From NCBI GenBank assembly GCA_964397775.1, contig CAYNKL010000119.1, positions 1-12,682 of the forward strand: DNA of 12,682 nt. The letters are read 5' to 3'. The DNA is from an uncultured Rhodobacterales bacterium (lineage in GTDB: Bacteria; Pseudomonadota; Alphaproteobacteria; Rhodobacterales; Rhodobacteraceae). Positions within the stretch are counted from its first letter, which is position 1. The number at the start of each line of letters is the position of its first letter. Shown in pieces: positions 1-12,682 of this stretch. The notes under the pieces are model-generated. The model searched no databases. It was not told the origin of the DNA and saw only the letters and a program-made list of their open reading frames with translations. The position numbers and the translations under genes are program-made.

Positions 1-57
1 CCCCTGAACGAGCTGCGCAGCAGCGGCTCCAACTCCAACACCAACGGGGGTAACTGA
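1..57 (+). CDS. hflK: 3' end of upstream gene (likely hflK): open frame from the window start ending ...PLNELRSSGSNSNTNGGN* at TGA 55-57
   Basis: Frame 1 is open from nt 1 to the TGA at 55-57, three nt before the hflC ATG. hflK-hflC adjacency is the conserved arrangement. Only 18 codons are visible, so the identity rests on synteny alone. Confidence 0.4.
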   Translation, partial: PLNELRSSGSNSNTNGGN

Positions 58-60
58 GCC

Positions 61-1287
61 ATGGGCAAGCTGACAGCCTTTATCGTGGCGGTGGTCGTCG
101 TCGTGGTCATCGCCCTCTCGTCGATGTTCGTGGTGGATGAGCGTGAAAAGGCGCTCGTGCTTCAGTTCGGTCAGATCCGGGCCGTGAAGGAAGAGCCGGG
201 GCTCGCCTTCAAGGTGCCGCTGATCCAGGAAGTCGTGCGCTACGACGACCGGATCCTGTCGCTGGATACCGAGACCATCGAGGTCACGCCTTCCGACGAC
301 CGGCGTCTCGTCGTCGACGCCTTCGCGCGCTACCGGATCGAGGACGTGGTCCAGTTCCGTCAGGCCGTCGGTGTCGGTGGCATCCGCAGCGCCGAGGACC
401 GTCTTCAGGGCATCCTCAACGCGCAGATCCGCGAGGTTCTGGGTGCCGATCAGGTGACGTCCGACCGTATCCTCTCCGAGGACCGCCGCGACCTGACCGT
501 CCGTATCCGCGACAATGCGCGGGACGAGGCGCAGGCGCTCGGCATCGACGTGGTGGACGTGCGTCTGAAGCAGACGAACCTTCCCTCGCAGAACCTCGAG
601 GCCACCTTTGCCCGGATGCGGGCCGAGCGTGAACGCGAGGCCGCCGACGAAATCGCCCGCGGTAACGAGGCGGCGCAGCGTGTGCGCGCGCTTGCCGACC
701 GGACCGTGGTCGAGACCCTGTCCGAGGCGGACCGGGAAGCCAACGTGATCCGCGGTGAGGCGGATGCGCAGACCAACCGGATCTATGCCGAGGCTTATGG
801 TCAGGACCCGGAGTTCTTCGCCTTCTACCGGTCGCTGCAGGCCTACGAGACGGCGATCCAGGGTGGGACCTCCTCGATGGTCATGACCCCGGACACCGAG
901 TTCTTCGAGTACTTCTCGAATGCGCAACCGGACGAGACCAAGGCGCTTGCCGAGGTGCCGGCGCAGCCGTCCTCGGGGCGCACGCCGGAAGAGACCGCGC
1001 GCGAGTTCGAGGAAGAGACCGGGACAAGCACCGGCGGTGCCGCAGAAGAGCTGCAGAACCTGAGCGAGACCGCGCTTCCCTCGGAAGACGAGGAAGACGA
1101 TGGCCAAGGCGCCAGCGGCTCGGGTGATAGCGGCGCGACGGACAGTCAGTCCGAGGGTGGCGATGCCACCTCGGGTGACGGTTCCGGCAACGCCGACCAG
1201 AGCACCGATGACGGTTCGGGTGAAACCGGGTCCTCCGACGACGGATCGTCGGCCCAGGAGGACGAAACCGGGTCCGCTTCGGAGTGA
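61..1287 (+). CDS. hflC: HflC, SPFH/band-7 protease modulator (FtsH regulator), with a ~120-aa acidic Ser/Gly/Asp/Glu/Thr-rich C-terminal extension
   Basis: N-terminal TM helix (FIVAVVVVVVIALSSMFVV) is followed by an SPFH domain colinear with E. coli HflC. Matching blocks include VDEREKALVLQFGQI, DVVDVRLKQTNLP, ARMRAEREREA, FFAFYRSLQAYE and MVMTPDTEFF. After about residue 285 the sequence becomes low complexity (EDEEDDGQGASGSGDSGATDSQSEGGDATSGDGSGNADQSTDDGSGETGSSDDGSS). Confidence 0.88.
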   Translation: MGKLTAFIVAVVVVVVIALSSMFVVDEREKALVLQFGQIRAVKEEPGLAFKVPLIQEVVRYDDRILSLDTETIEVTPSDDRRLVVDAFARYRIEDVVQFRQAVGVGGIRSAEDRLQGILNAQIREVLGADQVTSDRILSEDRRDLTVRIRDNARDEAQALGIDVVDVRLKQTNLPSQNLEATFARMRAEREREAADEIARGNEAAQRVRALADRTVVETLSEADREANVIRGEADAQTNRIYAEAYGQDPEFFAFYRSLQAYETAIQGGTSSMVMTPDTEFFEYFSNAQPDETKALAEVPAQPSSGRTPEETAREFEEETGTSTGGAAEELQNLSETALPSEDEEDDGQGASGSGDSGATDSQSEGGDATSGDGSGNADQSTDDGSGETGSSDDGSSAQEDETGSASE

Positions 1288-1472
1288 CCGGATCGGATCT
1301 GCTGACGGGGCTTGCCTTCGTCCTGATCGTGGAGGGGCTGGTGTACGCACTGGCCCCTTCGCTTGTGGAACGCCTGCTGGAAGCGCTGCGTGCAATGCCC
1401 TTGGAGACACGGCGGATGCTTGGGCTGCTGACGCTGACGACCGGCATTCTGCTGCTTTGGGTCGCGCGATAG
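1284..1472 (+). CDS. DUF2065 (YjeT-like) small two-TM membrane protein
   Basis: The GTG start at 1284-1286 overlaps the hflC TGA at 1285-1287 (GTGA). The 62-aa product has two hydrophobic segments and a VLIVEGLVYALAPSLV...MPLETRRMLGLLTLTTGILLLWVAR pattern matching the YjeT/DUF2065 architecture. Its position between hflC and degP is the conserved alphaproteobacterial arrangement. Confidence 0.72.
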   Translation: MTGSDLLTGLAFVLIVEGLVYALAPSLVERLLEALRAMPLETRRMLGLLTLTTGILLLWVAR

Positions 1473-1483
1473 GGGGCTCATTG

Positions 1484-1512
1484 GTCACGTGACGGCGATT
1501 TCCAGTCACATG
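1484..1512. promoter_or_regulatory. Candidate operator: perfect 10-bp palindrome GTCACGTGAC (1484-1493) plus a related half-site GTCACATG (1505-1512) 21 bp downstream, in the DUF2065-degP intergenic region
   Basis: Direct reading of the sequence. The palindrome has no loop, so it is more likely a dimeric protein-binding site than an RNA hairpin. It sits about 140 bp upstream of the degP start. Confidence 0.3.
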
Positions 1513-1628
1513 CGCTTGAGGCGGTGAAACCAGACCTTTGGTGTTGCCGCGCTGCACCTATCTCTGCGACACTACAGTGAGGCAGGCGGCCCTCTGCGTG
1601 GCCGGCTGGCAGAGACAAGGAGTGACCT

Positions 1629-3125
1629 GTGACATCTCAAGCATTGGCAATCCCACAAAAATCGGCGCATCCGCTGAGGCTTTTCTGGATTGCATCCCTC
1701 TCGATGATGCTGATCGTCGCGCAGTCGGTGATGGCATCGGCCCGCGGCGCGCCGGAAACCTTTGCGGATCTGGCCGATCAGGTGAGCCCTTCCGTGGTGA
1801 ACATCACCACCTCGACCACCGTGGCCGGGCGCGCAGGGCCGCAGGGCATCGTTCCCGAAGGTTCGCCTTTCGAGGATTTCTTTCGTGAATTCCGGGACCG
1901 CCAGGGTCCCAGCCAGCCCCGCCGCTCGTCGGCCCTGGGCTCGGGTTTCGTCATTTCCGAAGACGGCTACATCGTCACGAACAACCACGTGATCGAATCC
2001 GCCGACGAGATCACCATCGAGTTCTTCTCGGGCGAGGAGCTTCCGGCCGAGGTCGTGGGCACCGATCCCAACACCGACATCGCGCTGCTCAAGGTCGAGT
2101 CCGACGAGCCGCTGCCCTTCGTGCCCTTCGGTGACAGCGACACCGCGCGCGTCGGCGACTGGGTCATGGCCATGGGCAACCCGCTCGGCCAGGGCTTTTC
2201 GGTGAGCGCGGGTATCGTTTCGGCGCGCAACCGCGAGCTTTCGGGCACCTACGACGACTACATCCAGACCGACGCGGCCATCAACCGCGGCAACTCGGGC
2301 GGACCGCTGTTCAACATGGCCGGCGAAGTCATCGGCGTGAACACCGCGATCCTGTCGCCCAATGGCGGCTCGATCGGCATCGGTTTCTCAATGGCCTCGA
2401 ACGTTGTGACGCGGGTCGTTGACCAGCTGCAGGAATACGGCGAGACCCGCCGCGGCTGGCTTGGCGTCCGGATCCAGGACGTGACCGATGACGTGGCCGA
2501 GGCGCTTGACCTTGCCAGCTCGGAAGGCGCGCTGGTTTCCGACGTTCCCGAAGGTCCTGCCGCAGAGGCCGGGATGGAAGCCGGGGACGTGATCGTCAGC
2601 TTCGACGGCAAGAAGGTCACCGACACTCGCCAGCTTGTCCGGATCGTGGGCAACACGACGGTCGGCAAGACGGTGCGCGTCGTGGTCAATCGCGAGGGCG
2701 AGACACAGACCCTTCGCGTGACGCTTGGCCGCCGCGAGGACACCGAGACCGCCGTTCCGGCCTCGCAGGAAGTCATTCCGGATCAGCCGTCGAGCATGGA
2801 CCTGATGGGCCTGACGCTCGCGCCGCTCGACGACGAGATGCGCGAGAACCTCGAGCTTGGCGGAGACGTCGAGGGGCTGGCCGTGATGGATGTCGATCCC
2901 ACGTCCGAAGCCTATGAGAAGGGTCTGCGTGCCGGTGACGTGATCACTGAGGCGGGACAGGACACCGTGGCCAGCCTCGGCGACTTTGAAACCCGCCTGC
3001 AGGATGCACGCGACGCGGGTCGCAAGTCGATCCTGCTGCTGGTCCGCCGTGGCGGCGATCCCCGGTTCGTGGCTCTGAGCCTCGAACAGGAGCAGGAGCC
3101 GGAGGCGGCGCCTGCCGACGAGTAA
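1629..3125 (+). CDS. degP: Periplasmic serine endoprotease DegP/HtrA (Do) family, trypsin-like domain plus two PDZ domains
   Basis: GTG start at 1629 with a GGAG Shine-Dalgarno 7 nt upstream. Signal peptide LRLFWIASLSMMLIVAQSVMASA. Catalytic triad contexts TNNHVI (His), DIALLKV (Asp) and GNSGGPLFN (Ser). The first PDZ domain is around GWLGVRIQDV...GDVIVSFDGKKV and the second around GDVITEAG. Confidence 0.92.
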   Translation: MTSQALAIPQKSAHPLRLFWIASLSMMLIVAQSVMASARGAPETFADLADQVSPSVVNITTSTTVAGRAGPQGIVPEGSPFEDFFREFRDRQGPSQPRRSSALGSGFVISEDGYIVTNNHVIESADEITIEFFSGEELPAEVVGTDPNTDIALLKVESDEPLPFVPFGDSDTARVGDWVMAMGNPLGQGFSVSAGIVSARNRELSGTYDDYIQTDAAINRGNSGGPLFNMAGEVIGVNTAILSPNGGSIGIGFSMASNVVTRVVDQLQEYGETRRGWLGVRIQDVTDDVAEALDLASSEGALVSDVPEGPAAEAGMEAGDVIVSFDGKKVTDTRQLVRIVGNTTVGKTVRVVVNREGETQTLRVTLGRREDTETAVPASQEVIPDQPSSMDLMGLTLAPLDDEMRENLELGGDVEGLAVMDVDPTSEAYEKGLRAGDVITEAGQDTVASLGDFETRLQDARDAGRKSILLLVRRGGDPRFVALSLEQEQEPEAAPADE

Positions 3126-3147
3126 CGGAACCTTAAGTCCGGTTCGT

Positions 3148-3180
3148 GACGGGCGCCCTTCGGGGCGCCCGTTTCGTTTT
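3148..3180 (+). terminator. Rho-independent terminator after degP: GAC-GGGCGCCC-ttcg-GGGCGCCC followed by GTTTCGTTTT
   Basis: Perfect 8-bp GC stem (3151-3158 / 3163-3170) with a 4-nt loop and a T-rich tail at 3171-3180. It lies 23 nt past the TAA. Confidence 0.75.
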
Positions 3181-3185
3181 GGGGC

Positions 3186-3674
3186 TTAGCGGTCCGAGGG
3201 TGTGGGCAGGATGATTGGCATGAGGCCGAGATCGCGGGCCATCTCTGCCGAAAGACGGTCGCTGTCGAGACCGCGCGCCGACTGGTAGCCGCGGATGGCG
3301 GCACGGGTCGCGGTGTCGAGCTCACCCGTGATCGGGGCGTCGAACAGGCCACGCGCTGCCAGCGCCCGTTGCAGAGAGGCGATGAATTCGGGCGTGAGCG
3401 CGTCGGGGCAGGGGGCCTCGAAGCGGAGCTCGTCCCGTGGGCGCACGACGCGTGGCACCGGAGCGCGGCGATAGACAGGCGCCCGCAGCACGGTGCCATC
3501 CGCGGCGATCTCGGCGGGGACCACCTGAACCTCTCCCATGACCTGCTCGTAGATGGCGGGCTGCAGCGTCTCGCTGGCCCAGCAGCGCTCTGTCGCGCCG
3601 GTTTTCTGCGGCGCCGGCATGGCGCAGGCCGAGAGGACGCCGAGTGCTGCGATAGGGGCCAGGCGGCGGGGCAT
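3186..3674 (-). CDS. Lipoprotein with a putative peptidoglycan-binding domain (PG_binding_1-like C-terminus)
   Basis: Minus-strand ORF. The chosen ATG (complement of 3672-3674) gives MPRRLAPIAALGVLSAC, a signal peptide with the lipobox L-S-A-C. The C-terminal TRAAIRGYQSARGLDSDRLSAEMARDLGL resembles the peptidoglycan-binding repeat fold. The longer 199-aa reading has a basic, non-signal N-terminus and is less likely. Confidence 0.55.
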   Translation of the reverse strand: MPRRLAPIAALGVLSACAMPAPQKTGATERCWASETLQPAIYEQVMGEVQVVPAEIAADGTVLRAPVYRRAPVPRVVRPRDELRFEAPCPDALTPEFIASLQRALAARGLFDAPITGELDTATRAAIRGYQSARGLDSDRLSAEMARDLGLMPIILPTPSDR

Positions 3675-3799
3675 TGCGGGCGGTGCCTTTCTGCGGCTGT
3701 TGATGCGGTGTGGCAGCGACGTTAACGGGGTTTGCCGCGGTCGGAAAGAAAGTGCCGGGCGTGTGGCTGCCTTTGCAACCGGCACCGCGGCGGGGATAG

Positions 3800-4204
<405 letters not shown>

Positions 4205-4271
4205 ACATTTGGCCGGGGCGCCGCGCAATCCGTCGCGCCCCTGGGGCGCGGTCGCCCGCGGCGCGGGGCTG

Positions 4272-4952
4272 ATGCTGGGCCTGTGGCTTGCGGGGGCAGG
4301 GCCAGCGCTGGCCGACAGGATCCTCGCGGCGGAGTATGGCGATCCGACCGGGCGATATGCCCACGGCGTGCTTGGCGATGACCTGGAATGGGGATCGCTG
4401 AAGCTTCGGCTTGCGGACGGGAGCCTGAGGCGGTTCATTCTGGACGAGTCGCTGGTGTTCGAGGACCTCGCGCCGCGGCTTTACGATGTGGACGGGATGG
4501 CGGGCCCCGAAGTGATCGTGGTGGAAAGCCATGTGGACGCCGGGGCGCGGCTGGCCGTCTGGGGACCCGGGGGCCGTATCGCCGCGACGCCCTTTATCGG
4601 GCAGCCCTTCCGCTGGCTGGCGCCGGTTGCCGCGGGCGACCTGGATGGCGACGGCCGGGTCGAGATCGCCTACGTGGATCGACCGCATCTGGCGCGGATC
4701 CTGCGGATCTGGCGCTTCGAGGGCGGGACACTTCGCGAGATCGCCAGTTTCGAGGGTGTGAGCAATCATCGTATCGGCTGGGCGCGGATCGTCGGGGGCT
4801 TGCGTTCCTGTGAAGGTGGTCCGGAGTTGATCCTGCCGAGCGGCGACTGGCAGGACGTGCTGGCGCTGAGGCTGGTGGATGGGCAGGTCCGTGCGCGCAG
4901 GATCGGAGCCTATTCGGAGCGCGCACTGGATGCGGCGATGGCCTGCGATTAG
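4272..4952 (+). CDS. Secreted hypothetical protein with FG-GAP/VCBS-like Dx(D/N)GDG motifs
   Basis: The ATG at 4272 gives the signal-peptide-like MLGLWLAGAGPALA-DR. The protein contains AAGDLDGDGRVEIAYVD and YDVDGMAGPEVIVVESH, which resemble FG-GAP/VCBS calcium-binding repeat motifs. The start is uncertain because the ORF is open from 4164 and would overlap the ferredoxin gene. Confidence 0.5.
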   Translation: MLGLWLAGAGPALADRILAAEYGDPTGRYAHGVLGDDLEWGSLKLRLADGSLRRFILDESLVFEDLAPRLYDVDGMAGPEVIVVESHVDAGARLAVWGPGGRIAATPFIGQPFRWLAPVAAGDLDGDGRVEIAYVDRPHLARILRIWRFEGGTLREIASFEGVSNHRIGWARIVGGLRSCEGGPELILPSGDWQDVLALRLVDGQVRARRIGAYSERALDAAMACD

Positions 4953-5018
4953 GCGAGGTCGACCGTTCGGGCATCGTGGGGCTTTGCTTTCGCGCGCGAG
5001 GCACTTAAGCCTGCACCC

Positions 5019-5831
5019 ATGAAAATACTTTATCTTGGCGACGTGATGGGGCGTGCGGGGCGCGCGGCGGTGGCAGAGCGGCTTCCGGCGCTGCGCGAGG
5101 CCTGGAAGCTCGATTTCGTGATCGTGAACGGCGAGAATGCGTCGAACGGCAGCGGGTTGACGGCGGAGCACGCGGGCGGGCTGTTCGAGGCGGGTGCGGA
5201 CGTCGTGACGCTGGGCGATCACGCCTTCGACCAGAAGGACATGCTGACGCATATCGAGAAGGACAACCGGATCATCCGCCCGCTCAACTACGCCAAGCAG
5301 GCACCGGGCCGGGGCGCGGCGCTTTTCTCCGACCGGCGCGGGCGCAAGGTGCTGGTGGCGCAGGTGCTGGGCCAGGTCTTCATGAAGCGGGCCTTCGACG
5401 ACCCCTTTTCGGCCCTCGACGAGGTGCTGCGCCGGCATCCCATGGGCGGGCAGGCGCAGGCCATCGTGGTGGACATCCACTGCGAGGCGACCTCCGAGAA
5501 GATGGGCGTGGGGCATTTCTGCGACGGTCGGGCGAGCCTTGTGGTCGGCACGCATACGCATGTGCCGACGGCCGATGCGCAGATCCTGCCGGGCGGCACC
5601 GGGTTTCTCAGCGATGCGGGCATGTGCGGGGACTACGATTCTGTCATCGGCATGGAAAAGACCGAGCCGATGCGGCGCTTCGTGACCGGCATGGGCAAGA
5701 CCCGCTTCCAGCCGGCGCTGGGCGAGGCGACTCTGTGCGGCGTGCTGGTGGAAACCGACGACCGGACGGGCAAGGCCACGCGTATCGAGCCTGTCCGGCA
5801 GGGCGGCCGCCTGCAACAGGCCGGCGCGTGA
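5019..5831 (+). CDS. ymdB: YmdB-family metallophosphoesterase (TIGR00282; 2',3'-cyclic-nucleotide phosphodiesterase-like)
   Basis: MKILYLGDVMGRAGR...FVIVNGENASNGSGLT...VVTLGDHAFDQKD...IVVDIHCEATSEKMGVGHFCDGRASLVVGTHTHVPTAD is colinear with YmdB-family calcineurin-like phosphoesterases and includes the metal-binding D/H/N motifs. Confidence 0.85.
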   Translation: MKILYLGDVMGRAGRAAVAERLPALREAWKLDFVIVNGENASNGSGLTAEHAGGLFEAGADVVTLGDHAFDQKDMLTHIEKDNRIIRPLNYAKQAPGRGAALFSDRRGRKVLVAQVLGQVFMKRAFDDPFSALDEVLRRHPMGGQAQAIVVDIHCEATSEKMGVGHFCDGRASLVVGTHTHVPTADAQILPGGTGFLSDAGMCGDYDSVIGMEKTEPMRRFVTGMGKTRFQPALGEATLCGVLVETDDRTGKATRIEPVRQGGRLQQAGA

Positions 5832-6751
5832 AAGGCGTCTTGCCCTTTGCCGCCCTGATCCTGATCGGGGCGGCCTGGGGCGGGACGCAGCCGCTGGCCA
5901 AGGTCGCCGTCTCGGAAGGGTATCGACCCTTCGGTATCCTCGTCTGGCAGAACGCGCTTGTCGCCGTGATCCTGGCCGGGATCACGCTCCTGCGCGGGCG
6001 CAGCCTGCGCACCGACGGGGTGGCCCTGCGGCTCTACCTGCTTATTGCCGTGATCGGGACGGTCCTGCCGGGGCTCGCTTCCTACAGCGCGGCTGTGCAT
6101 CTTCCCTCGGGCGTGCTTTCGATGCTGCTGAGCTCGGTCCCGATGCTGGCCTTTCCCGTGGCGCTTGCGCTTGGCATCGACGTCTTCGGCTGGCGGAGGC
6201 TTGCGGGCCTCAGCCTGGGGCTAGCGGGTGTCGCGCTGCTGGTGATGCCGGAGACCGGAGCGGCCGGCGCGGTTCCGGTGGTCTGGGTCGCGGTCGCGCT
6301 GCTGGCCTCGGCCTGCTACGCGATCGAGGGCAACTATGTCGCGCGGTTCGGGACTGACGGGCTCGACCCCTTGCAGCTTCTCGCGGGTGCCTCGGTCGTG
6401 GGGATGTTGCTGAGCCTGCCACTCGCCATCGCCACCGGGCAATTCATTGATCCGCGGGGCGCCTGGACGCAGCCCGACACGGCCATCGTCGCGTCGTCCC
6501 TTCTGCATGCTGCGGCCTATTCCGGCTATGTCGGACTGGTCGGGTTGGCGGGATCGGTCTTTGCCGTGCAGGTGAGCTATTTCGTCACGCTGTTCGGCCT
6601 CGCCTGGGCGATGCTCTTCCTCGGCGAGGGATATTCGGGCTGGTTCTGGGGCGCTTTGGCGCTGATGTTGGCAGGGCTGGCGCTCGTGCAGCCGCGACCG
6701 GCTGCTTCGCTTGTGCCGGTCCGACCCATGGGGCAGGATGCCCGGCGATGA
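5828..6751 (+). CDS. DMT-superfamily (EamA-like) transporter, about 10 TM helices
   Basis: A GTG at 5828 overlaps the ymdB TGA at 5829-5831 (GTGA). Downstream of it the protein is uniformly hydrophobic with an EamA-like duplicated 5-TM pattern (LILIGAAWGGTQPLAK..., ...YFVTLFGLAWAMLFLGE). Upstream of 5828 the same ORF is Arg/Gly-rich and non-membrane, so it is probably not translated. Confidence 0.68.
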   Translation: MKGVLPFAALILIGAAWGGTQPLAKVAVSEGYRPFGILVWQNALVAVILAGITLLRGRSLRTDGVALRLYLLIAVIGTVLPGLASYSAAVHLPSGVLSMLLSSVPMLAFPVALALGIDVFGWRRLAGLSLGLAGVALLVMPETGAAGAVPVVWVAVALLASACYAIEGNYVARFGTDGLDPLQLLAGASVVGMLLSLPLAIATGQFIDPRGAWTQPDTAIVASSLLHAAAYSGYVGLVGLAGSVFAVQVSYFVTLFGLAWAMLFLGEGYSGWFWGALALMLAGLALVQPRPAASLVPVRPMGQDARR

Positions 6752-6773
6752 ACGAGGCATTGGTTTCCCCGAA

Positions 6774-8552
6774 ATGATATTTTTCGACCTGAGCCAGGCG
6801 GCGGCCGCGTATCTGACGCTCGCGGTGGTGGTTGGCATGTTCGTGCTGTTCGTGCGCGAGACCTATCCGACCGAGGTCGTCGCCATCGGCGGCGTCGCGG
6901 TGCTGCTGGCGCTCGGGGTGCTGCCCTACGATGCCGCGTTGGAGGTCCTGTCGAACCCGGCGCCCTGGACCATCGCCGCCATGTTCCTCGTGGTCGGGGC
7001 CCTCGTGCGGACCGGGGCACTGGAGAGCTTTTCGAGCTATGCGCAGGGGCAGGTGAGCAAGCAGCCCAAGGCAGCCGTGGTGGGTATCCTCGTCGTGGTG
7101 GTCGTTGCCTCGGCCTTCATGAACAACACGCCGGTCGTGGTGGTGATGCTGCCGATCTTCGTGCAGATTTCCCGCTCGCTCGGCGTGGCACCCTCCAAGC
7201 TGCTGATCCCGCTCAGCTATGCCTCGATCCTCGGCGGGACCGCGACACTGATCGGCACCTCGACCAACCTGCTTGTGGACGGCGTTGCCCGGACCCGCGG
7301 GCTCGAACCCTTCTCGATCTTCGAGGTGACGCCGCTGGCGCTGATCCTCATCCTCTGGGGCGGCATCTACATGGCGCTCTTCGGGCGCAAGCTGCTGCCG
7401 GAGCGGGATTCGATGGCTGGCATGCTCTCGGACCGGTCGCGGATGAAGTTCTTCACCGAGGCCGTGATCCCGCCGGATTCCAACCTCGTCGGACGCGAGG
7501 TGCTGGGCGTGCAACTGTTCAAGCGCGAGGGCGTGCGGCTGGTAGACGTTGTGAGGGGCGATGAATCGCTGCGTCGCAACCTCGACGGTGTCATTCTGGA
7601 GGTCGGCGACCGCGTCGTGCTGCGGACCCAGATGACCGAGCTGCTGAGCCTGCAGCGCAACAAGTCGCTGAAGCGCGTGGACCAGGTCTCCTCGAAGGAA
7701 ACCACCACGGTCGAGGCGCTGATCTCGCCGGGCTGCAAGATGGTCGGCCGGTCGCTGGGGGCGCTGCGTTTGCGGCGGCGCTACGGTGTCTACCCGCTGG
7801 CGGTGCACCGGCGGAACCAGAACATCGGTCGGCAGCTCGACGATCTCGTGGTGCGGGTCGGCGACACGCTGCTGCTCGAGGGCTCGCCCGAGGATATCCG
7901 GCGCCTGTCGGAAGAGATGGACATGGTCGACGTCTCGCGGCCCTCGGCCAAGGCCTTTCGCCGCAGCCATGCGCCTGTGGCGCTCGGCGCGCTTGCGGGC
8001 ATCGTGATCCTCTCCGCGCTCGGTGTGGCGCCGATCCTCGCGCTTGCGGTCATCGCGGTGGCGGTGGTGCTGCTGGCCCGTTGCGTCGATGCCGAGGAGG
8101 CTTTCGGTTTCGTCGAGGGCCAGCTGCTGGCGCTCATCTTCGCGATGCTGGCCATCGGGGCGGCGCTGGAAGCCTCGGGGGCGGTGGAGCTGCTGGTAGG
8201 GGCGGTGGCGCCGGTCATGGAGATGCTGCCGGGCTGGCTGCTGGTCTGGGCGGTCTATCTGCTGACCTCGCTTCTGACCGAGACGGTGAGCAACAACGCC
8301 GTGGCCGTGGTCGTTACACCGGTGGCGATCGGACTGGGACAGGCGCTTGGGCTCGACCCGCGCCCGCTGGTGGTGGCGGTCATGGTGGCGGCAAGCTGCA
8401 GCTTCGCCACGCCCATCGGCTATCAGACCAACACCATGGTCTATGGCCCGGGCGGCTACCGCTTCGCGGACTTCCTGCGGGTTGGCGTGCCGCTGAACAT
8501 CAGCGTCGGCCTTTTGGCATCGCTTCTGATTCCGCTGTTCTGGCCCCTCTGA
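6774..8552 (+). CDS. SLC13/CitMHS-family permease with two central TrkA_C (RCK_C) regulatory domains
   Basis: N- and C-terminal polytopic membrane halves ([26 protein letters not shown]..., ...[25 protein letters not shown]...) flank two repeats of the RCK_C pattern ([11 protein letters not shown]...[12 protein letters not shown]...[11 protein letters not shown] and [11 protein letters not shown]...[10 protein letters not shown]...[13 protein letters not shown]). The ATG at 6774 (MIFFDL) is preferred over the upstream ATG at 6711, which would overlap the DMT gene. Confidence 0.8.
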
Positions 8553-8572
8553 CGCCCCACGCGCGCACGCCC

Positions 8573-8602
8573 TTGGCAAGCGGTGGGGGCTTGGCCTATA
8601 TC
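8573..8602 (+). promoter_or_regulatory. Candidate sigma70-type promoter for yebC: TTGGCA (8573-8578), 18-nt spacer, TATATC (8597-8602)
   Basis: Matches the consensus at 5 of 6 positions in the -35 and 4 of 6 in the -10, within a 90-bp intergenic region. It would give a leader of about 35 nt to the ATG at 8642. This is pattern-based only. Confidence 0.3.
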
Positions 8603-8641
8603 ACGCCCGATCAGAAACAGGTGGACGAGCGAGAGGCAAGC

Positions 8642-9382
8642 ATGGCCGGGCACTCCAAGTGGGCGAACATTCAACACCGCAAGGGGCGGCAGGACGCGGC
8701 GCGCTCCAAGCTGTTTTCGAAGCTGTCGAAGGAGATCACGGTGGCCGCCAAGATGGGCGACCCCGATCCCGAGAAGAACCCGCGTCTGCGGCTGGCAGTG
8801 AAGGAAGCCAAGGCGAGCTCGGTCCCCAAGGACGTGATCGACCGCGCCATCAAGAAGTCGCAGGCCGGTGACGGCGAGAACTACGAAGAGATCCGCTACG
8901 AGGGCTACGGGCCCAACGGCGTGGCGGTGATCGTCGAGGCGATGACCGACAACCGCAACCGGACCGCGTCCAACGTGCGCTCGACCTTCTCCAAGAACGG
9001 CGGCAACATGGGCGAGAGCGGCTCGGTAGCCTTCATGTTCGAGCGCAAGGGCGAGATCATCTACCCTGCGTCTGCCGGGGATGCCGACGACATCATGATG
9101 GCGGCCATCGAGGCGGGCGCCGAGGATGTGGAAAGCAGCGAGGAAAGCCATGTGATCTGGTGCGCGGACACGGATCTCAACGAGGTCTCGACCGCGCTGG
9201 AAGAGCAGCTTGGCGAATCCGAGAGCACCAAGCTGACCTGGAAGCCCGCGAACACCACCGAGCTCGACCTCGAGGGGATGCAGTCGCTGATGAAGCTTGT
9301 CGACGCGCTCGAGGACGACGACGACGTGCAGCGCGTCACCACCAACTTCGAGGCCTCCGACGAGGTGATGGAACAGCTCTGA
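8642..9382 (+). CDS. yebC: YebC/PmpR-family DNA-binding transcriptional regulator
   Basis: ATG at 8642 with a GAGAGG Shine-Dalgarno 6 nt upstream. [39 protein letters not shown]...[11 protein letters not shown]... is the highly conserved YebC N-terminus. The product is 247 aa with an acidic C-terminus. The long upstream extension of the ORF (from 8081) is Gly/Arg-rich and not coding. Confidence 0.92.
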
Positions 9383-9408
9383 ACGCCGCGCCGGGTCAGA
9401 GATAGGGA

Positions 9409-9447
9409 CACCCCGCCGACCTGTCGTCGCGGGGTGTTTTATTGCGG
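9409..9447 (+). terminator. Rho-independent terminator after yebC: ACACCCCGC...GCGGGGTGT stem followed by TTTTATT
   Basis: 9-bp GC-rich stem (9409-9417 / 9430-9438) with an internal CGAC/GTCG sub-stem, then a T-rich tract at 9438-9444. Confidence 0.6.
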
Positions 9448-9455
9448 GGGAACGC

Positions 9456-10046
9456 ATGCAGGCAGTCTTGGCGGGCTTTGCGCTCGGGTTTTCGCTGATC
9501 CTGGCCATCGGGGCGCAGAATGCCTTTGTGCTGCGTCAGGGGCTGCGGCGGGCGCATGTGGGCACCGTCGTGATCGTCTGCGCGGTGTCGGACGCGGTGC
9601 TGATCGCGGCGGGGGTCGCGGGCTTTGGCGCGCTGGCGGAGGCGGTGCCAGGGCTGGAATGGGGGATGCGCATCTTCGGGGCGGCCTTCCTGGGCTGGTA
9701 CGGGGCGCGCACGCTCTGGGCCGCGTGGAAGGGCGGGCAGGTGATGGAGGCGGGCGCGGCGGCGCAGTCGCGGCGGTCTGCCGTGCTGACCTGCCTCGCG
9801 CTGACCTGGCTCAACCCGCATGTCTACCTCGATACGGTGGTGCTGCTGGGATCGGTCTCGTCCCGCTACCCGGCGCTGCCCTTCGCGCTGGGGGCGATGG
9901 CGGCCTCGGGAGTGTTCTTCACCGCGCTGGGCTACGGCGCGCGGGGGCTGGCGCCGCTCTTTGCGCGGCCGGCCGCCTGGAGGGCGCTGGACCTGGTCGT
10001 GGGGCTGACCATGTGGGCCATCGCCGCGAGCCTGATCTGGGGGTGA
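9456..10046 (+). CDS. argO: LysE/ArgO-family amino-acid exporter (arginine/lysine exporter)
   Basis: The product is 196 aa with 6 TM segments. ILAIGAQNAFVLRQGLRRA and LTWLNPHVYLDTVVLLGSVS closely parallel the E. coli ArgO motifs GPQNAFVMNQGIRRQ and TWLNPHVYLDTFVVLGSLG. Confidence 0.85.
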   Translation: MQAVLAGFALGFSLILAIGAQNAFVLRQGLRRAHVGTVVIVCAVSDAVLIAAGVAGFGALAEAVPGLEWGMRIFGAAFLGWYGARTLWAAWKGGQVMEAGAAAQSRRSAVLTCLALTWLNPHVYLDTVVLLGSVSSRYPALPFALGAMAASGVFFTALGYGARGLAPLFARPAAWRALDLVVGLTMWAIAASLIWG

Positions 10047-10052
10047 GCGGCG

Positions 10053-10075
10053 ATGTCCCGGGCCGGGACATTTTT
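10053..10075 (+). terminator. Rho-independent terminator after argO: ATGTCCCG-ggc-CGGGACAT followed by TTTTT
   Basis: 8-bp stem (10053-10060 / 10064-10071), 3-nt loop and a T5 tract at 10071-10075, starting 7 nt after the TGA at 10044-10046. Confidence 0.65.
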
Positions 10076-10205
10076 CGATGGTATATGAATCAATGGGTTA
10101 GTGGTTAGCGTTAACCGGGACTTAGGAATGTTCCGCGGCAGCCCCTGCTTTGCAGCGGGTGGCCGATGTGGTTTTGTGGCCCCTGATGTAGGGGAGGTCT
10201 TGGGG

Positions 10206-12494
10206 ATGTGGTCGGAAGTCGAGGCATGGTTGCGCACGGGGCCGGGAGCCGCGATCGCCTCGCTTGTCACACTTCTGGCATTTGCCGGGATCGATGCCCG
10301 GTGGGGCTGGAACGTGATCCGGAGGTTGGCCGGCAGGGGCGCCCCCGCCACCGTGCAAAAGGTCGAGGTCGTCACGCCGGAGCCGCAGAAGACAGGCTCG
10401 AAATTCCCGAAGATCCTCCCGCCGCCCCGCGACCGGACCCTTGTTGGGCGGGAAAAAGAACTGGGGCGCATCCGCAGCCTGCTGGCCAGCCGCCACGGGG
10501 TGCAGATCACCGGCCAGACTGGCGTGGCGCTGAGCGCCGAGGGCGGGCGGGGCAAGACGGCGCTGGCCAAGGAATACGCCTGGCGTTTTCGCGACGCATA
10601 CGATGGCGGTTACTGGCTTGATGCCCAGACACGGGCGAACCTGCTGGCAGATCTGGCGCGTCTGGGTGAGCGCGCCTTTGACATGCCGGTGCGGGATTCG
10701 GTCACGGAGGCCGATGGACGTGCGGTGCTGGCGCGGATCGCGGACAGCGGGGCGCGATGGTTGCTGGTCTATGACAACGCCGACAGTTACGACGAGATCC
10801 CCGATGCGAAGCAGGGCGAGGTGCGCGACCTGATCTGCCAGGCGCCGGACGTCGATGTGATCGTGACCAGCCGCAGGGCGCTGGGCTGGGACGGCTACGG
10901 GCGCATCGACCTTGAGGTGCTGGACACGGATAGCCCCGAGGGCGGCGCGGTGGACCTGCTGTTGCAGGAGGCGGGTCTTGCGTTTCCCACGCCCGAGGAC
11001 AGGCAGGCCGCCTGGCTCGTGGCTCAGGAGCTGGGCGGTCTGCCGCTGGCGCTGGTGCTGGCCGGGGCGCTGGTGCGGGTAGACGGATGGAGCTTTGCAC
11101 AGCTGCGCGACGAAGTTTCTGAGGTGCTGACCCGCGCGCCCGAAAGCCCGCTTTACCCAAACAGCGTGGCGGGGGCGGTGCGGCTGACCTATGGGCGGCT
11201 GGGCGCGGATGCGCAGGCGCTGGCGGATCTTTGCGCCTGGCTGGCGCCAGAGGGGCTGACGGAGGCGCTGTTTGCGGGGGCGGTGAAAGACCCGTCTTGG
11301 CCAGCCTATTCCGATGATGCCGTCCCCGAGGTGCGGGCGGTTCTGGACGACCCGGCGCGTCTGCGCGCGGGGTTGCAGGAGTTGCGGCGCTGGTCGGTGC
11401 TGTCCGGTGAGGGCGGGATGCACCGGTTGACGCAAGCGGTTCTGCGGGCGGCTCAGACGGAGGGGGACTGTGACTTTGCCAGTGCGCGCGGGGCGGCGGC
11501 GGTTTTGGCGGCGCAGTTTCCGGGGGGGAGCGAGAATTCGCCGGTGCTTCAAGAAAACTGGGAGGTCTGTCGTACTCTGGTACCGCATGTCCGGTCGCTT
11601 TGGGGCACTTCGGTAGAGCCTTGGCGCGTGCGGTGGCAGCAGCCAGGATGGGCTGCCATGGACTATCTTTTGAGCCAGGGGGCGGTCTTCCTGTCGCGGC
11701 AAGAGGATCGTGAGGGGGCGATTGTCTTGGGCCGTCCCGCGCTTGAGTTGAAAGAGATGCGTCTCGGCGAAGAACACCGCGATATCCCGCTAGCGCTGGG
11801 CAACTTGGCTCTCGATCTAGCCGAGGTTGGGGCGCTGGCGGAGGCGCGGGCCAAGATTACACGCGCAGTGGCACTCGATGAGGTGCATCGGCGGCGCGAG
11901 GCGCGCGGCCAAATGGCGGGGACCTACATGCAGCAGGCCAAAATTGCGTTCCGTAGCATGGAGGCCGGTGGCGAGATCGCGGAGGGCGCGGAGGTCGAGG
12001 CTGAGGCCGCGCTGGAAGGAGCCGGAGAGATCTGGGAAACGCTGTTTGGCGCTGAGAGCGAAGAGATGGCGCTGGTCTGGAACGAGAGGGGCTATTTGAG
12101 GCAGCTGCAGGGAAGACAGCGACTGCAATGGCAGGCTTCGAGCCGCGCGCTTGAGATCACCCGGGCGTTGGATGATCCGGACCAAACAGTCCTGGCGACC
12201 TATGCCACGAATGTTGGCTCGACGGCGCTGGAGCTGGGGCGGGCCAATGACGCGCGAGGACCTTTGAAGGAGGCTTACGATCTGGCGCGCGAGGTCTATT
12301 TCGATCTTCCGGATCATTCGCATTACGTTGGATGTTGCAAAAAGCTGACCCTCTGCCTGCTGGTTCTGGCGCGCAAGGGTGGCCGCGGCGCGCGGCGTGA
12401 GGCCGAGGCGCTTGCTGCGCGGCATGGGTTGGATCTGGCGGAGATGGAGGCTGTTGCGGAGAGGTTCCCGTTGGAGCCGGTGGCGGAGGCGTAG
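10206..12494 (+). CDS. STAND NTPase with NB-ARC domain and C-terminal TPR-like repeats; the short N-terminus has a single hydrophobic helix and no recognisable effector domain
   Basis: The ATG at 10206 has a GGGGAGG Shine-Dalgarno 8 nt upstream; the ORF is open from the GTG at 10101. The NB-ARC motif set is complete. LVGREKELGRIRSLL precedes the P-loop SAEGGRGKTALA (about 10536-10571). The Walker B motif is WLLVYDNAD (about 10758-10784) and the RNBS-B-like motif is VIVTSRR. The GLPL motif is ELGGLPLALVLAG (about 11029-11067) and the MHD-like motif is GGMHRLTQAVLR (about 11412-11447). The C-terminal ~330 aa is helical and repeat-like, TPR-like (ALGNLALDLAEVGALAEA, ALEITRAL, AYDLAREVY). The N-terminus MWSEVEAWLRTGPGAAIASLVTLLAFAGIDARWGWNVIRRLAGR has one TM-length hydrophobic stretch. 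Confidence 0.8.
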   Translation: MWSEVEAWLRTGPGAAIASLVTLLAFAGIDARWGWNVIRRLAGRGAPATVQKVEVVTPEPQKTGSKFPKILPPPRDRTLVGREKELGRIRSLLASRHGVQITGQTGVALSAEGGRGKTALAKEYAWRFRDAYDGGYWLDAQTRANLLADLARLGERAFDMPVRDSVTEADGRAVLARIADSGARWLLVYDNADSYDEIPDAKQGEVRDLICQAPDVDVIVTSRRALGWDGYGRIDLEVLDTDSPEGGAVDLLLQEAGLAFPTPEDRQAAWLVAQELGGLPLALVLAGALVRVDGWSFAQLRDEVSEVLTRAPESPLYPNSVAGAVRLTYGRLGADAQALADLCAWLAPEGLTEALFAGAVKDPSWPAYSDDAVPEVRAVLDDPARLRAGLQELRRWSVLSGEGGMHRLTQAVLRAAQTEGDCDFASARGAAAVLAAQFPGGSENSPVLQENWEVCRTLVPHVRSLWGTSVEPWRVRWQQPGWAAMDYLLSQGAVFLSRQEDREGAIVLGRPALELKEMRLGEEHRDIPLALGNLALDLAEVGALAEARAKITRAVALDEVHRRREARGQMAGTYMQQAKIAFRSMEAGGEIAEGAEVEAEAALEGAGEIWETLFGAESEEMALVWNERGYLRQLQGRQRLQWQASSRALEITRALDDPDQTVLATYATNVGSTALELGRANDARGPLKEAYDLAREVYFDLPDHSHYVGCCKKLTLCLLVLARKGGRGARREAEALAARHGLDLAEMEAVAERFPLEPVAEA

Positions 12495-12539
12495 TGGGCG
12501 GCGGGCGCGTCTTGATGGCTGCGAGCCCCCTCACCCTAT

Positions 12540-12562
12540 CCCTCTCCCCCGAGGGGAGAGGG
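12540..12562. repeat. Extragenic palindrome CCCTCTCCCC-cga-GGGGAGAGGG (perfect 10-bp stem, 3-nt loop), REP-like element
   Basis: Direct reading of the sequence. It starts 46 nt after the STAND stop, is preceded by CCCTCACCCTAT and has no T-tract after it, so it is not a canonical intrinsic terminator. Confidence 0.5.
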
Positions 12563-12657
12563 GACCTGTTGCGCTGGCTTTGGCGGGGGCGCTGTCTCTC
12601 CAGTGGTCCGGGCCTGTCTTCCGGGCGTGCCCGGTCTCCGACCCTTCCTCGCTGAAA

Positions 12658-12676
12658 TCATGCCTCCGGCATGATG
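12658..12676. repeat. Palindrome ATCATGCC-tcc-GGCATGAT (8-bp stem) at the window edge, overlapping a possible ATG-ATG start of the next gene
   Basis: Direct reading of the sequence. The window ends before any context can be evaluated. Confidence 0.3.
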
Positions 12677-12682
12677 TCCGGG

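Follow-up and report, generated by a model that had tools for sequence, protein, structure and literature searches.

A solitary NB-ARC–TPR protein with a predicted N-terminal membrane helix and mosaic alleles at a fixed Rhodobacterales locus, a candidate NLR-like immune sensor

The subject of this analysis is a single gene near the 3' end of a 12,682-nucleotide (nt) contig from an uncultured Rhodobacterales bacterium (CAYNKL010000119.1, positions 1 to 12,682; hereafter the window). The gene encodes a STAND NTPase in which one predicted N-terminal membrane helix precedes an NB-ARC core and a TPR-like repeat sensor, and we refer to its product as the STAND protein. Two results are new: a TIR domain is exchanged for the helix at one and the same locus, and mosaic alleles that are ~54% identical sit within near-identical flanks. 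In the window, the gene lies downstream of a LysE/ArgO-family exporter gene (9456-10046), and the remaining genes are housekeeping genes, namely those for an SPFH protein, a DegP-like protease, a ferredoxin, YmdB, EamA, a CitMHS/TrkA_C transporter and YebC. An independent short-read contig (L076) is identical to the window at 100% over 9037-11907, and its gene call shares the STAND start, MWSEV. The original prediction, made from the letters of the window, had described an open reading frame (ORF) at 10206-12494 and quoted a set of NB-ARC motifs from it; the ORF and every one of these motifs are present. The gene and its parts are as follows:

10206..12494, + strand: the STAND coding sequence, complete, 762 amino acids (aa), from the ATG at 10206 to the stop at 12494, encoding an NTPase of predicted 1TM-NB-ARC-TPR layout (TM, transmembrane)
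10206..10247, + strand: acidic, Trp-containing tail (aa 1-14, net charge -1), predicted to be periplasmic
10248..10310, + strand: hydrophobic helix, with the core AAIASLVTLLAFAGI at aa 15-29 and continuing through D30-A-R-W-G-W to aa 35, a predicted single TM anchor or effector helix
10311..10451, + strand: basic, W/R-rich juxtamembrane segment NVIRRLAGRG and Pro-rich disordered linker (aa 36-82), ending in an arm, FPKIxPPxxxRxLVGR, that is conserved in the alignment
10452..10940, + strand: nucleotide-binding domain (NBD, aa 83-245), assigned from the P-loop, Walker B and sensor-I motifs, the fold, and a sub-threshold AAA_16 match over aa 79-196
10944..11465, + strand: helical domain (ARC1) with the GLPL motif and winged-helix domain (ARC2) with MHRL, assigned from Foldseek matches and invariant columns
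11523..12458, + strand: C-terminal TPR-like helical repeat sensor (aa ~440-751), assigned from TPR_12/TPR_10 and kinesin-light-chain matches

Along the core, the P-loop EGGRGKTALA (aa 112-121, 10539-10568) is followed by the Walker B motif LLVYDNAD (aa 186-193, 10761-10784), the sensor-I motif VIVTSRR (aa 218-224, 10857-10877), the GLPL motif GGLPLAL (aa 277-283, 11034-11054) and the MHD-type motif MHRL (aa 405-408, 11418-11429). In an alignment with 18 relatives, G113, G114, G116, K117, D190, N191, T221, R223, L279-L283 and H406 do not vary, and the five motifs hold throughout sets of 18-41 relatives. The Walker B motif has the form hhhhD-N, with Asn in place of the second acidic residue; this Asn is invariant in the 18 close relatives and present in at least 90% of a 41-sequence alignment. 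A second acidic residue (DD) is usual in Apaf-1 and plant NLRs, and the substitution suggests a slow-hydrolysing switch.

Profile searches matched the protein only weakly. Pfam gave TPR_12 at 1.4e-9, with AAA_16, TPR_10 and nSTAND5 below threshold, and the NCBIfam model FxsT (NF040586) aligned over aa 73-735 at E=2e-60 with 205 bits, below its curated cut-off of 300. In a sequence search of the PDB, the TPRs of kinesin light chain (KLC) were the only matches. The Pfam NB-ARC model PF00931 did not match the STAND protein even at E<=1. Its threshold (23.5 bits) is passed by the homologues P0012, P0051, P0062, P0080 and P0087 and by the proteins of loci L006 and L009, and the miss reflects the limited sensitivity of the model in the subfamily of the STAND protein.

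The predicted fold is more informative. An AlphaFold2 model built from the 41-sequence alignment (pLDDT 89.9, pTM 0.84) had as its top Foldseek matches in the PDB the archaeal STAND-TPR protein 6mfv, Apaf-1 (3shf, 3sfz, 1z6t) and CED-4, followed by the plant proteins NRC2/3/4, ZAR1, Sr35 and Roq1 and then by the TPR domains of KLC and LGN. The matches to 6mfv, Apaf-1, CED-4, NRC2/3/4 and ZAR1 had probability 1.00 and E values of 2e-9 to 1e-5, and no NACHT protein appeared among the top 50. Because the motifs, the homologues that pass the Pfam threshold and the predicted fold agree, we assign the STAND protein, as modelled, to the NB-ARC (AP-ATPase) clade of NTPases, with a KLC-type TPR sensor. 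The original prediction of an NB-ARC-clade protein with TPRs is therefore upheld by motifs, fold and the TPR_12 match; at the level of profile models, the TPRs were found, and neither PF00931 nor any defence model was. It had also described a protein with no enzymatic output domain at its N-terminus, and indeed neither an enzymatic nor a DNA-binding output domain was detected by Pfam, NCBIfam or AlphaFold2/Foldseek. The superfamily to which this core belongs is large, with 13,335 clusters at E<1e-30 in a profile search of 1.84 billion representative proteins.

What stands at the N-terminus instead is the hydrophobic helix. Its Kyte-Doolittle hydropathy is 1.65 over 19 aa and 2.30 over 15 aa. 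In the AlphaFold2 model, a short helix at aa 2-11 precedes a continuous helix at aa 14-42 (pLDDT 50-60) and disorder up to aa 82, with pLDDT <50 at aa 40-56. We surveyed this region in the best 150 and the first hits of the profile search and found that at least 48 relatives, ~700-790 aa long, carry one strongly hydrophobic helix within their first ~40 residues. In nearly all 48, a W/F-rich tail of neutral to negative net charge (mostly -1 to -4) comes before the helix, and the 20 residues after it carry a net charge of mostly +2 to +7; the corresponding values in the window protein are -1 and +3. An acidic residue right after the hydrophobic run recurs in many of the 48 members and is D30 in the window allele.

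Because of this positive-inside charge signature, the helix is predicted to be an N-out/C-in anchor that leaves the ATP-dependent domains in the cytoplasm. To judge from the family-wide pattern, it is probably a real, conserved and constitutive membrane helix, and most simply it is a constitutive membrane anchor. The original prediction had called it amphipathic/hydrophobic and likened it to the N-terminal alpha1 helix of ZAR1. The helix itself holds up, being family-wide and located at the effector position occupied by TIR in homologues; a sequestered amphipathic helix of the ZAR1 kind was rejected, as the AlphaFold2 model has a naked hydrophobic helix with a positive-inside flank and without a bundle.

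We then compared the window allele with other alleles on metagenome contigs, namely those of L011 (protein P0006), L013-L015 (P0009) and L016-L018 (P0002). Synonymous (dS) and nonsynonymous (dN) divergence was calculated with our own Nei-Gojobori code, and the YebC comparisons involving the window, which were off-frame, were disregarded. Two further elements are needed for this comparison:

10111..10183, + strand: non-coding leader/promoter region, 73 nt, ~86-100% identical in the four alleles (window, L011, L013, L016), with divergence downstream of it
11163..11285, + strand: conserved block at aa 320-360 (...SVAGAVRLTYGRLGADAQALADLCAWLAPEGL...), whose protein sequence is 92-98% identical in all four alleles

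L011 and L013-L015 retain the window gene order from DegP to LysE and continue downstream with a 92-aa ORF, cysS and leuA. Over 8 kb of flank (window 2128-10183), the DNA of the window is 95-96% identical to that of L011/L013; for the neighbouring proteins the identity is ~91-100%, with lysE, yebC, CitMHS and ymdB at 99-100% over the true genes. The DNA identity breaks off 23 nt ahead of the start codon, at 10183. In the same comparison, the STAND proteins are 54% identical, the first ~800 nt of the gene cannot be aligned by blastn, and the remainder aligns at ~73%. The flanking genes show a dS of 0.09-0.2 and a dN of ~0.002, and the STAND gene a dS from 0.76 to saturated and a dN of 0.3-1.2. 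The TPR part is the most variable, with allele identities of 32-72% and a dS from 0.97 to saturated.

The divergence is also mosaic. The P0002 allele, whose flanks are ~87% identical to the window, shares with the window allele an NBD at 88-100% identity (L016; dS 0.32, dN 0.056), whereas the helix region is at 0-38% and the TPR part at 32-55% with saturated dS. Similarly, L011 and L013 share their NBD (86-100%) and differ in the TPR part (45-72%; dS 0.97, dN 0.25). The NBD and TPR identity matrices conflict, in that the window NBD is closest to that of P0002 (90%) and the window TPR to that of P0006 (61%), and P0013 has an outlying NBD (30-37%) with an ordinary TPR part (52-59%). The aa 320-360 block is conserved even in pairs whose surrounding NBD is only 13-48% identical, and the switch from NBD-type to TPR-type similarity partners takes place downstream of it, by ~aa 440. 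On these alignments, the block might mark a junction of recombination, reflect a tract of gene conversion, or be a winged-helix segment under unusual constraint.

Every sufficiently long contig that shares the CitMHS protein of the window carries a STAND allele, and no empty site was seen; the presence/absence polymorphism envisaged in the original prediction is thus not what we observed in this species. Searching for empty sites or further alleles with the exact LysE and CitMHS proteins brought back the window allele (L076), the P0006 allele and nothing else, and a protein-based metagenome scan returned distant relatives (<=37% identity) and no further alleles of the locus. The contigs L016, L017 and L018 (2.4-2.5 kb), from three independent assemblies, all break off ~110 nt ahead of the P0002 gene and 30-120 nt past it; strain polymorphism would produce such breaks as bubbles in the assembly graph. 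Taken together, the sequence comparisons indicate that old, divergent allelic modules appear to have been swapped by recombination at a fixed locus. The pattern, as far as sequences can indicate it, is that of polymorphic immune or recognition receptors and neither that of a housekeeping gene nor that of a recent island insertion.

The leader that precedes the break in identity holds an imperfect inverted repeat, CGGGAC-N8-GTTCCG (GTCCCG in other alleles). Because the reading frame from the leader into the gene differs among the alleles, we regard it as regulatory and non-coding, probably a promoter or an operator judging by its conservation as DNA, and recombination between alleles may use it as an upstream anchor as well. 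It had no Rfam match, and a scan for its exact pattern in JGI metagenomes gave no matches. Gene callers on the sister contigs begin their ORFs within the leader (P0006 begins MSRGSPCFAAGGRCGFVAP...). In-frame upstream ATG and GTG codons of the window (10128 and 10101) were considered as starts and rejected, as the leader is kept as DNA and its frame into the gene varies among alleles.

Is the gene confined to this species? A scan of species-representative genomes returned ten loci, and a homologue lies in a yebC/lysE neighbourhood in at least six Rhodobacterales genera (Thalassococcus, Tateyamaria, Puniceibacterium, Sagittula, a Paracoccaceae metagenome-assembled genome (MAG) and Actibacterium). 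The gene order varies by genus, with yebC-STAND-lysE in some and yebC-lysE-STAND in the window. In Sagittula (L006) and the Paracoccaceae MAG (L009), TIR_2 (E ~1e-20) replaces the helix at the yebC-adjacent site, giving a TIR-NB-ARC-TPR protein; these TIR-bearing homologues at the orthologous site are 33-45% identical. Other close relatives have TIR_2, DUF4062 or HTH_31 at the N-terminus, and more distant ones carry HTH_31 or SARP domains. Since TIR and other domains stand in its place in homologues, the helix occupies a position in which a known immune effector can take its place. In ~15 loci, no partner gene is conserved and only housekeeping genes recur, in agreement with the one-gene system originally predicted.

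The original prediction further took the setting of the gene to be consistent with horizontal insertion. A recent insertion is contradicted by the presence of the gene at the same site in several genera. Around the STAND gene in the window, searches for direct repeats, inverted repeats, tRNA genes and mobile-element genes found none, and a search for known RNAs gave only the weak match described below. Outside the yebC/lysE neighbourhood, Hoeflea and a Salinarimonadaceae MAG carry a STAND homologue among other housekeeping genes. The Salinarimonadaceae homologue (L001, Hyphomicrobiales) bears the helix, is 52% identical and adjoins recR and ymdB; its similarity to the window protein equals that among alleles of the same species, which, at the sequence level, suggests allele transfer between orders.

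Some of these loci show further features of their own. At L009, a 3.2-kb insert of low GC content (0.48-0.58 vs 0.64; 3819-6447) lies between yebC and the TIR-NB-ARC-TPR gene and contains an IS1-family transposase, an XRE-HTH/M78 (ImmA/IrrE-like) protein and a 164-aa ORF without a Pfam match; because of this insert, the yebC-adjacent site can be said to accept foreign DNA in some lineages. In Actibacterium sp. 188UL27-1 (L010, 10001-10730), a degraded STAND remnant spanning GLPL to the winged-helix domain and the extreme C-terminus lies between yebC and lysE; by its sequence it is a pseudogene, and ORFs without a Pfam match follow it. The 92-aa ORF that the sister contigs have in common likewise has no Pfam match. 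It runs opposite to the STAND gene, in the gap that separates that gene from cysS (L011 10580-10858 (-), L013 10388-10666 (-)), a stretch that lies beyond the end of the window. It is probably not part of the system, because it is absent where lysE comes after the STAND gene.

Two signals lie immediately upstream of the gene in the window, both read from the sequence:

10053..10075, + strand: hairpin ATGTCCC-GGGCC-GGGACAT after lysE (stem at 10053-10071), followed by a short T-run of only 4-5 T
10191..10197, + strand: Shine-Dalgarno sequence GGGGAGG, 8 nt 5' of the ATG

The gene had been described as solitary, downstream of lysE/argO, and provided with its own upstream terminator. The first two statements are borne out. 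As for the third, a consensus scan called no terminator at the hairpin between lysE and the STAND gene and no promoter, and L011 and L013 retain the hairpin without the T-run, so that it is a weak terminator at best. The codon usage, described as atypical, is only mildly so: the GC content at third codon positions is 0.77 in the STAND gene (0.72 in the TPR part), compared with 0.75-0.91 in the neighbours and 0.80-0.89 in those of more than 250 codons.

Elsewhere in the window, the mechanically called ORFs for YebC (8081-9382) and EamA (5624-6751) are over-extended at the 5' end and overlap the upstream genes; homology and the gene calls on the sister contigs put the true starts near 8642 and 5828, respectively. 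On a sister contig, a 62-aa DUF2065 ORF is called between the SPFH and DegP genes. Downstream, 46 nt past the STAND stop, a perfect 10-bp hairpin (CCCTCTCCCC-CGA-GGGGAGAGGG, 12540-12562) without a T-run had only a sub-threshold Rfam match to 'whalefall-1' (17 bits vs 37, E=0.64); by sequence, it resembles either a REP-type intergenic element or a stem of the Rho-independent-like kind.

Could a single N-terminal helix serve as the output of an immune sensor? The mosaic allelic hypervariation at a fixed locus strongly suggests an immune or conflict role, and we hold such a function to be fairly likely. A one-gene anti-phage defence role is probable. Under the scheme that we propose, the short periplasmic tail and the one TM helix (N-out/C-in) would tether the protein to the membrane, and the cytoplasmic part would consist of a nucleotide-dependent NB-ARC switch followed by the TPR solenoid. 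The TPR domain would bind an invader protein, most likely from a phage, and binding would lift autoinhibition and lead to nucleotide exchange in the NB-ARC core and oligomerisation. Since no other output domain or partner gene is present, the output would be the forced clustering of the N-terminal helices, with the acidic D30 near the cytoplasmic end of each. The resulting helix bundle would depolarise or permeabilise the inner membrane, causing abortive infection or growth arrest. At the level of the population, the locus would be fixed at yebC-lysE-STAND-cysS, with helix, NBD and TPR modules shuffled by recombination between old, divergent lineages.

The analysis shows the architecture and the fold, the helix with its charge asymmetry throughout the family, the exchange of TIR for the helix, the mosaic alleles and the solitary setting. 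We infer which ligand is bound, that the protein oligomerises and damages the membrane, and that it protects against phage, and the ligand-release, nucleotide-exchange and oligomerisation steps are drawn by analogy from established STAND/NLR biology. We regard the scheme as a whole, a solitary inner-membrane-anchored NLR-like immune sensor with a helix-clustering output, as evenly balanced between right and wrong. Membrane damage via helix clustering is plausible, and the depolarising pore of Csx28, described below, offers a precedent; that the helix is itself the effector is possible, at somewhat less than an even chance. A more specific version, on which we are tentative and which we think rather unlikely, is a minimal 'resistosome', in which an NB-ARC ring would bundle four to eight helices with a ring of D30 residues into an ion pore, and the allelic series would be kept under balancing selection in ocean Roseobacter.

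Several observations weigh against the proposed immune sensor. PADLOC-DB v2 returned no matches for the window protein, P0006, P0009 or P0016, and the TIR-bearing homologues matched only TIR-level models. No relatives were found on phage or viral contigs, and the relatives on plasmids were only distant ones. The locus lies outside any recognisable defence island, and, unlike a typical accessory defence gene, the gene is present in every sufficiently long contig of the species. The core of the helix in the window allele is short (15 residues; 21 including D30 and R32), and few of the helix-bearing relatives compared have a less hydrophobic one. Finally, the helix region is near-neutral between the sister alleles L011 and L013 (dN 0.30, dS 0.27); as far as sequences can tell, such evolution fits a mere anchor and a pore alike.

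The last two points are also those that speak for the alternative that survives best, a membrane-tethered TPR sensor in which the helix is an anchor only and the output is target sequestration, nucleotide consumption or the recruitment of an effector in trans, as in helper NLRs. A short core and a dN/dS of ~1 in the helix are what an anchor would allow, and apart from the frequent acidic residue only hydrophobicity and charge asymmetry are conserved in it. Furthermore, the helix is exposed in the model and would therefore be constitutively inserted rather than switchable. On the other hand, the recruitment of a partner finds no conserved partner gene in any of the ~15 loci, the N-terminus is the output position of STAND proteins and the very place where TIR replaces the helix at the same locus, and an acidic residue past the hydrophobic stretch recurs in many members. 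We consider the anchor-only alternative rather improbable.

Old, mosaic alleles maintained at one fixed site, with no contig seen to lack the gene, are a hallmark not only of immune receptors but also of allorecognition. The protein could accordingly be a receptor for non-viral conflict or recognition, directed at kin or non-self cells, gene-transfer-agent particles, plasmids or contact-dependent toxins, in the manner of the fungal HET-type NB-ARC/NACHT proteins, and Rhodobacterales are known producers of gene transfer agents. However, those bacterial STAND/NLR-like proteins that have repeat sensors and have been characterised act against phage, and no second polymorphic partner locus was seen; we judge this alternative unlikely.

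A housekeeping role as a signalling ATPase or regulator, of the AfsR, MalT or SARP-like STAND type and acting on neighbours such as lysE/argO or yebC, is very improbable. It would account for the linkage to yebC and lysE that is kept in several genera, and more distant relatives do carry HTH_31 or SARP, but a DNA-binding domain (SARP/BTAD or LuxR-type HTH) is absent from the protein and the adjacent genes. Moreover, the order relative to lysE varies among genera, the extreme divergence of alleles beside 99-100% identical neighbours is a poor fit, and a pseudogene remnant exists in Actibacterium. Least credible of all is a BASS-type amyloid-signalling NLR, whose short N-terminus would template a separate Bell-domain executioner: the N-terminal region ahead of the NB-ARC-TPR core is short, as in BASS NLRs, but it is a positive-inside hydrophobic helix and not a beta-prone motif, and the neighbours (lysE and, on the sister contigs, the 92-aa ORF and cysS) lack a matching C-terminal motif or a Bell domain.

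What would the immune-sensor reading of the STAND protein mean? If the single helix is the effector, no NLR-type receptor would be known with a smaller output module, and the protein would offer a simple system for the way in which NB-ARC oligomerisation leads to membrane damage, the question posed by the ZAR1/NRC resistosomes. The minimal resistosome, if true, would be a prokaryotic counterpart of the polymorphic plant and fungal NLR loci. Whatever the mechanism, the locus is a clean natural case of alleles diversifying module by module, in the manner of NLRs, among abundant marine bacteria, with TM and TIR outputs interchanged at orthologous sites. PADLOC v2 misses the whole NB-ARC-TPR family, that is, the 13,335 clusters counted above at E<1e-30.

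The class of architecture is already anticipated by published surveys, those of Avs and bNACHT proteins listing TM as a class of N-terminal effector, and the variant with a single-helix N-terminus is absent from current catalogues. With the Avs/AVAST and bNACHT systems, the STAND protein has in common the three-part layout of N-terminal output, central STAND NTPase and C-terminal TPR-like sensor in a single gene. It differs from them in its NTPase, which is of the NB-ARC/Apaf-1 type and belongs neither to NACHT nor to a catalogued Avs clade, in its output, which is a single helix and not an enzyme, and in the lack of a defence-island or mobile-element context. The nearest relatives by sequence, FxsT (the TPR protein of the FxSxx-COOH system) and the TIR-NB-ARC-TPR group, have a homologous NB-ARC and KLC-type TPR core, whereas the window protein has no TIR and lies next to lysE, yebC and CitMHS, with no FxsA or radical-SAM neighbours seen.

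Plant CC-NLRs (ZAR1, NRC, Sr35) match it in NB-ARC fold and motifs and share the idea that oligomerised helices form a channel with an acidic ring. On the other hand, the window protein has one naked helix and a disordered linker instead of a four-helix coiled coil or a MADA-type motif, its helix is probably always membrane-inserted, and its sensor is made of TPRs and not of leucine-rich repeats. The fungal NB-ARC/NACHT HET-type NLRs are described as having hypervariable repeat sensors, shuffled domains and old polymorphism, and our locus resembles them in all three. They are eukaryotic and serve allorecognition, and most of them combine WD/ANK/TPR sensors with N-terminal domains that can be recognised.

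The Bell, Babybell and HeLo-like domains are bundles of 80-100 aa that cup helix 1 and have a conserved N-terminal motif. An N-terminal hydrophobic helix as the executioner element of an NLR pathway is the common feature here, but the N-terminus of the window protein before the linker is only ~45 aa long and consists of one helix without a bundle, and no Pfam domain was found there. Among bacterial membrane effectors, Cam1 and Csx28 are comparable systems. Csx28, an accessory protein of type VI-B CRISPR, has one N-terminal TM helix per protomer and forms a membrane octamer that depolarises the membrane in phage infection. The single N-terminal TM helix is thus shared, and the sensing domains and triggers are unrelated; the Csx28 pore is lined mainly by a soluble four-helix bundle. 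Set beside these systems, the STAND protein belongs to no named defence family; its mode of action is most likely that of an Avs/NLR sensor coupled to a membrane effector.

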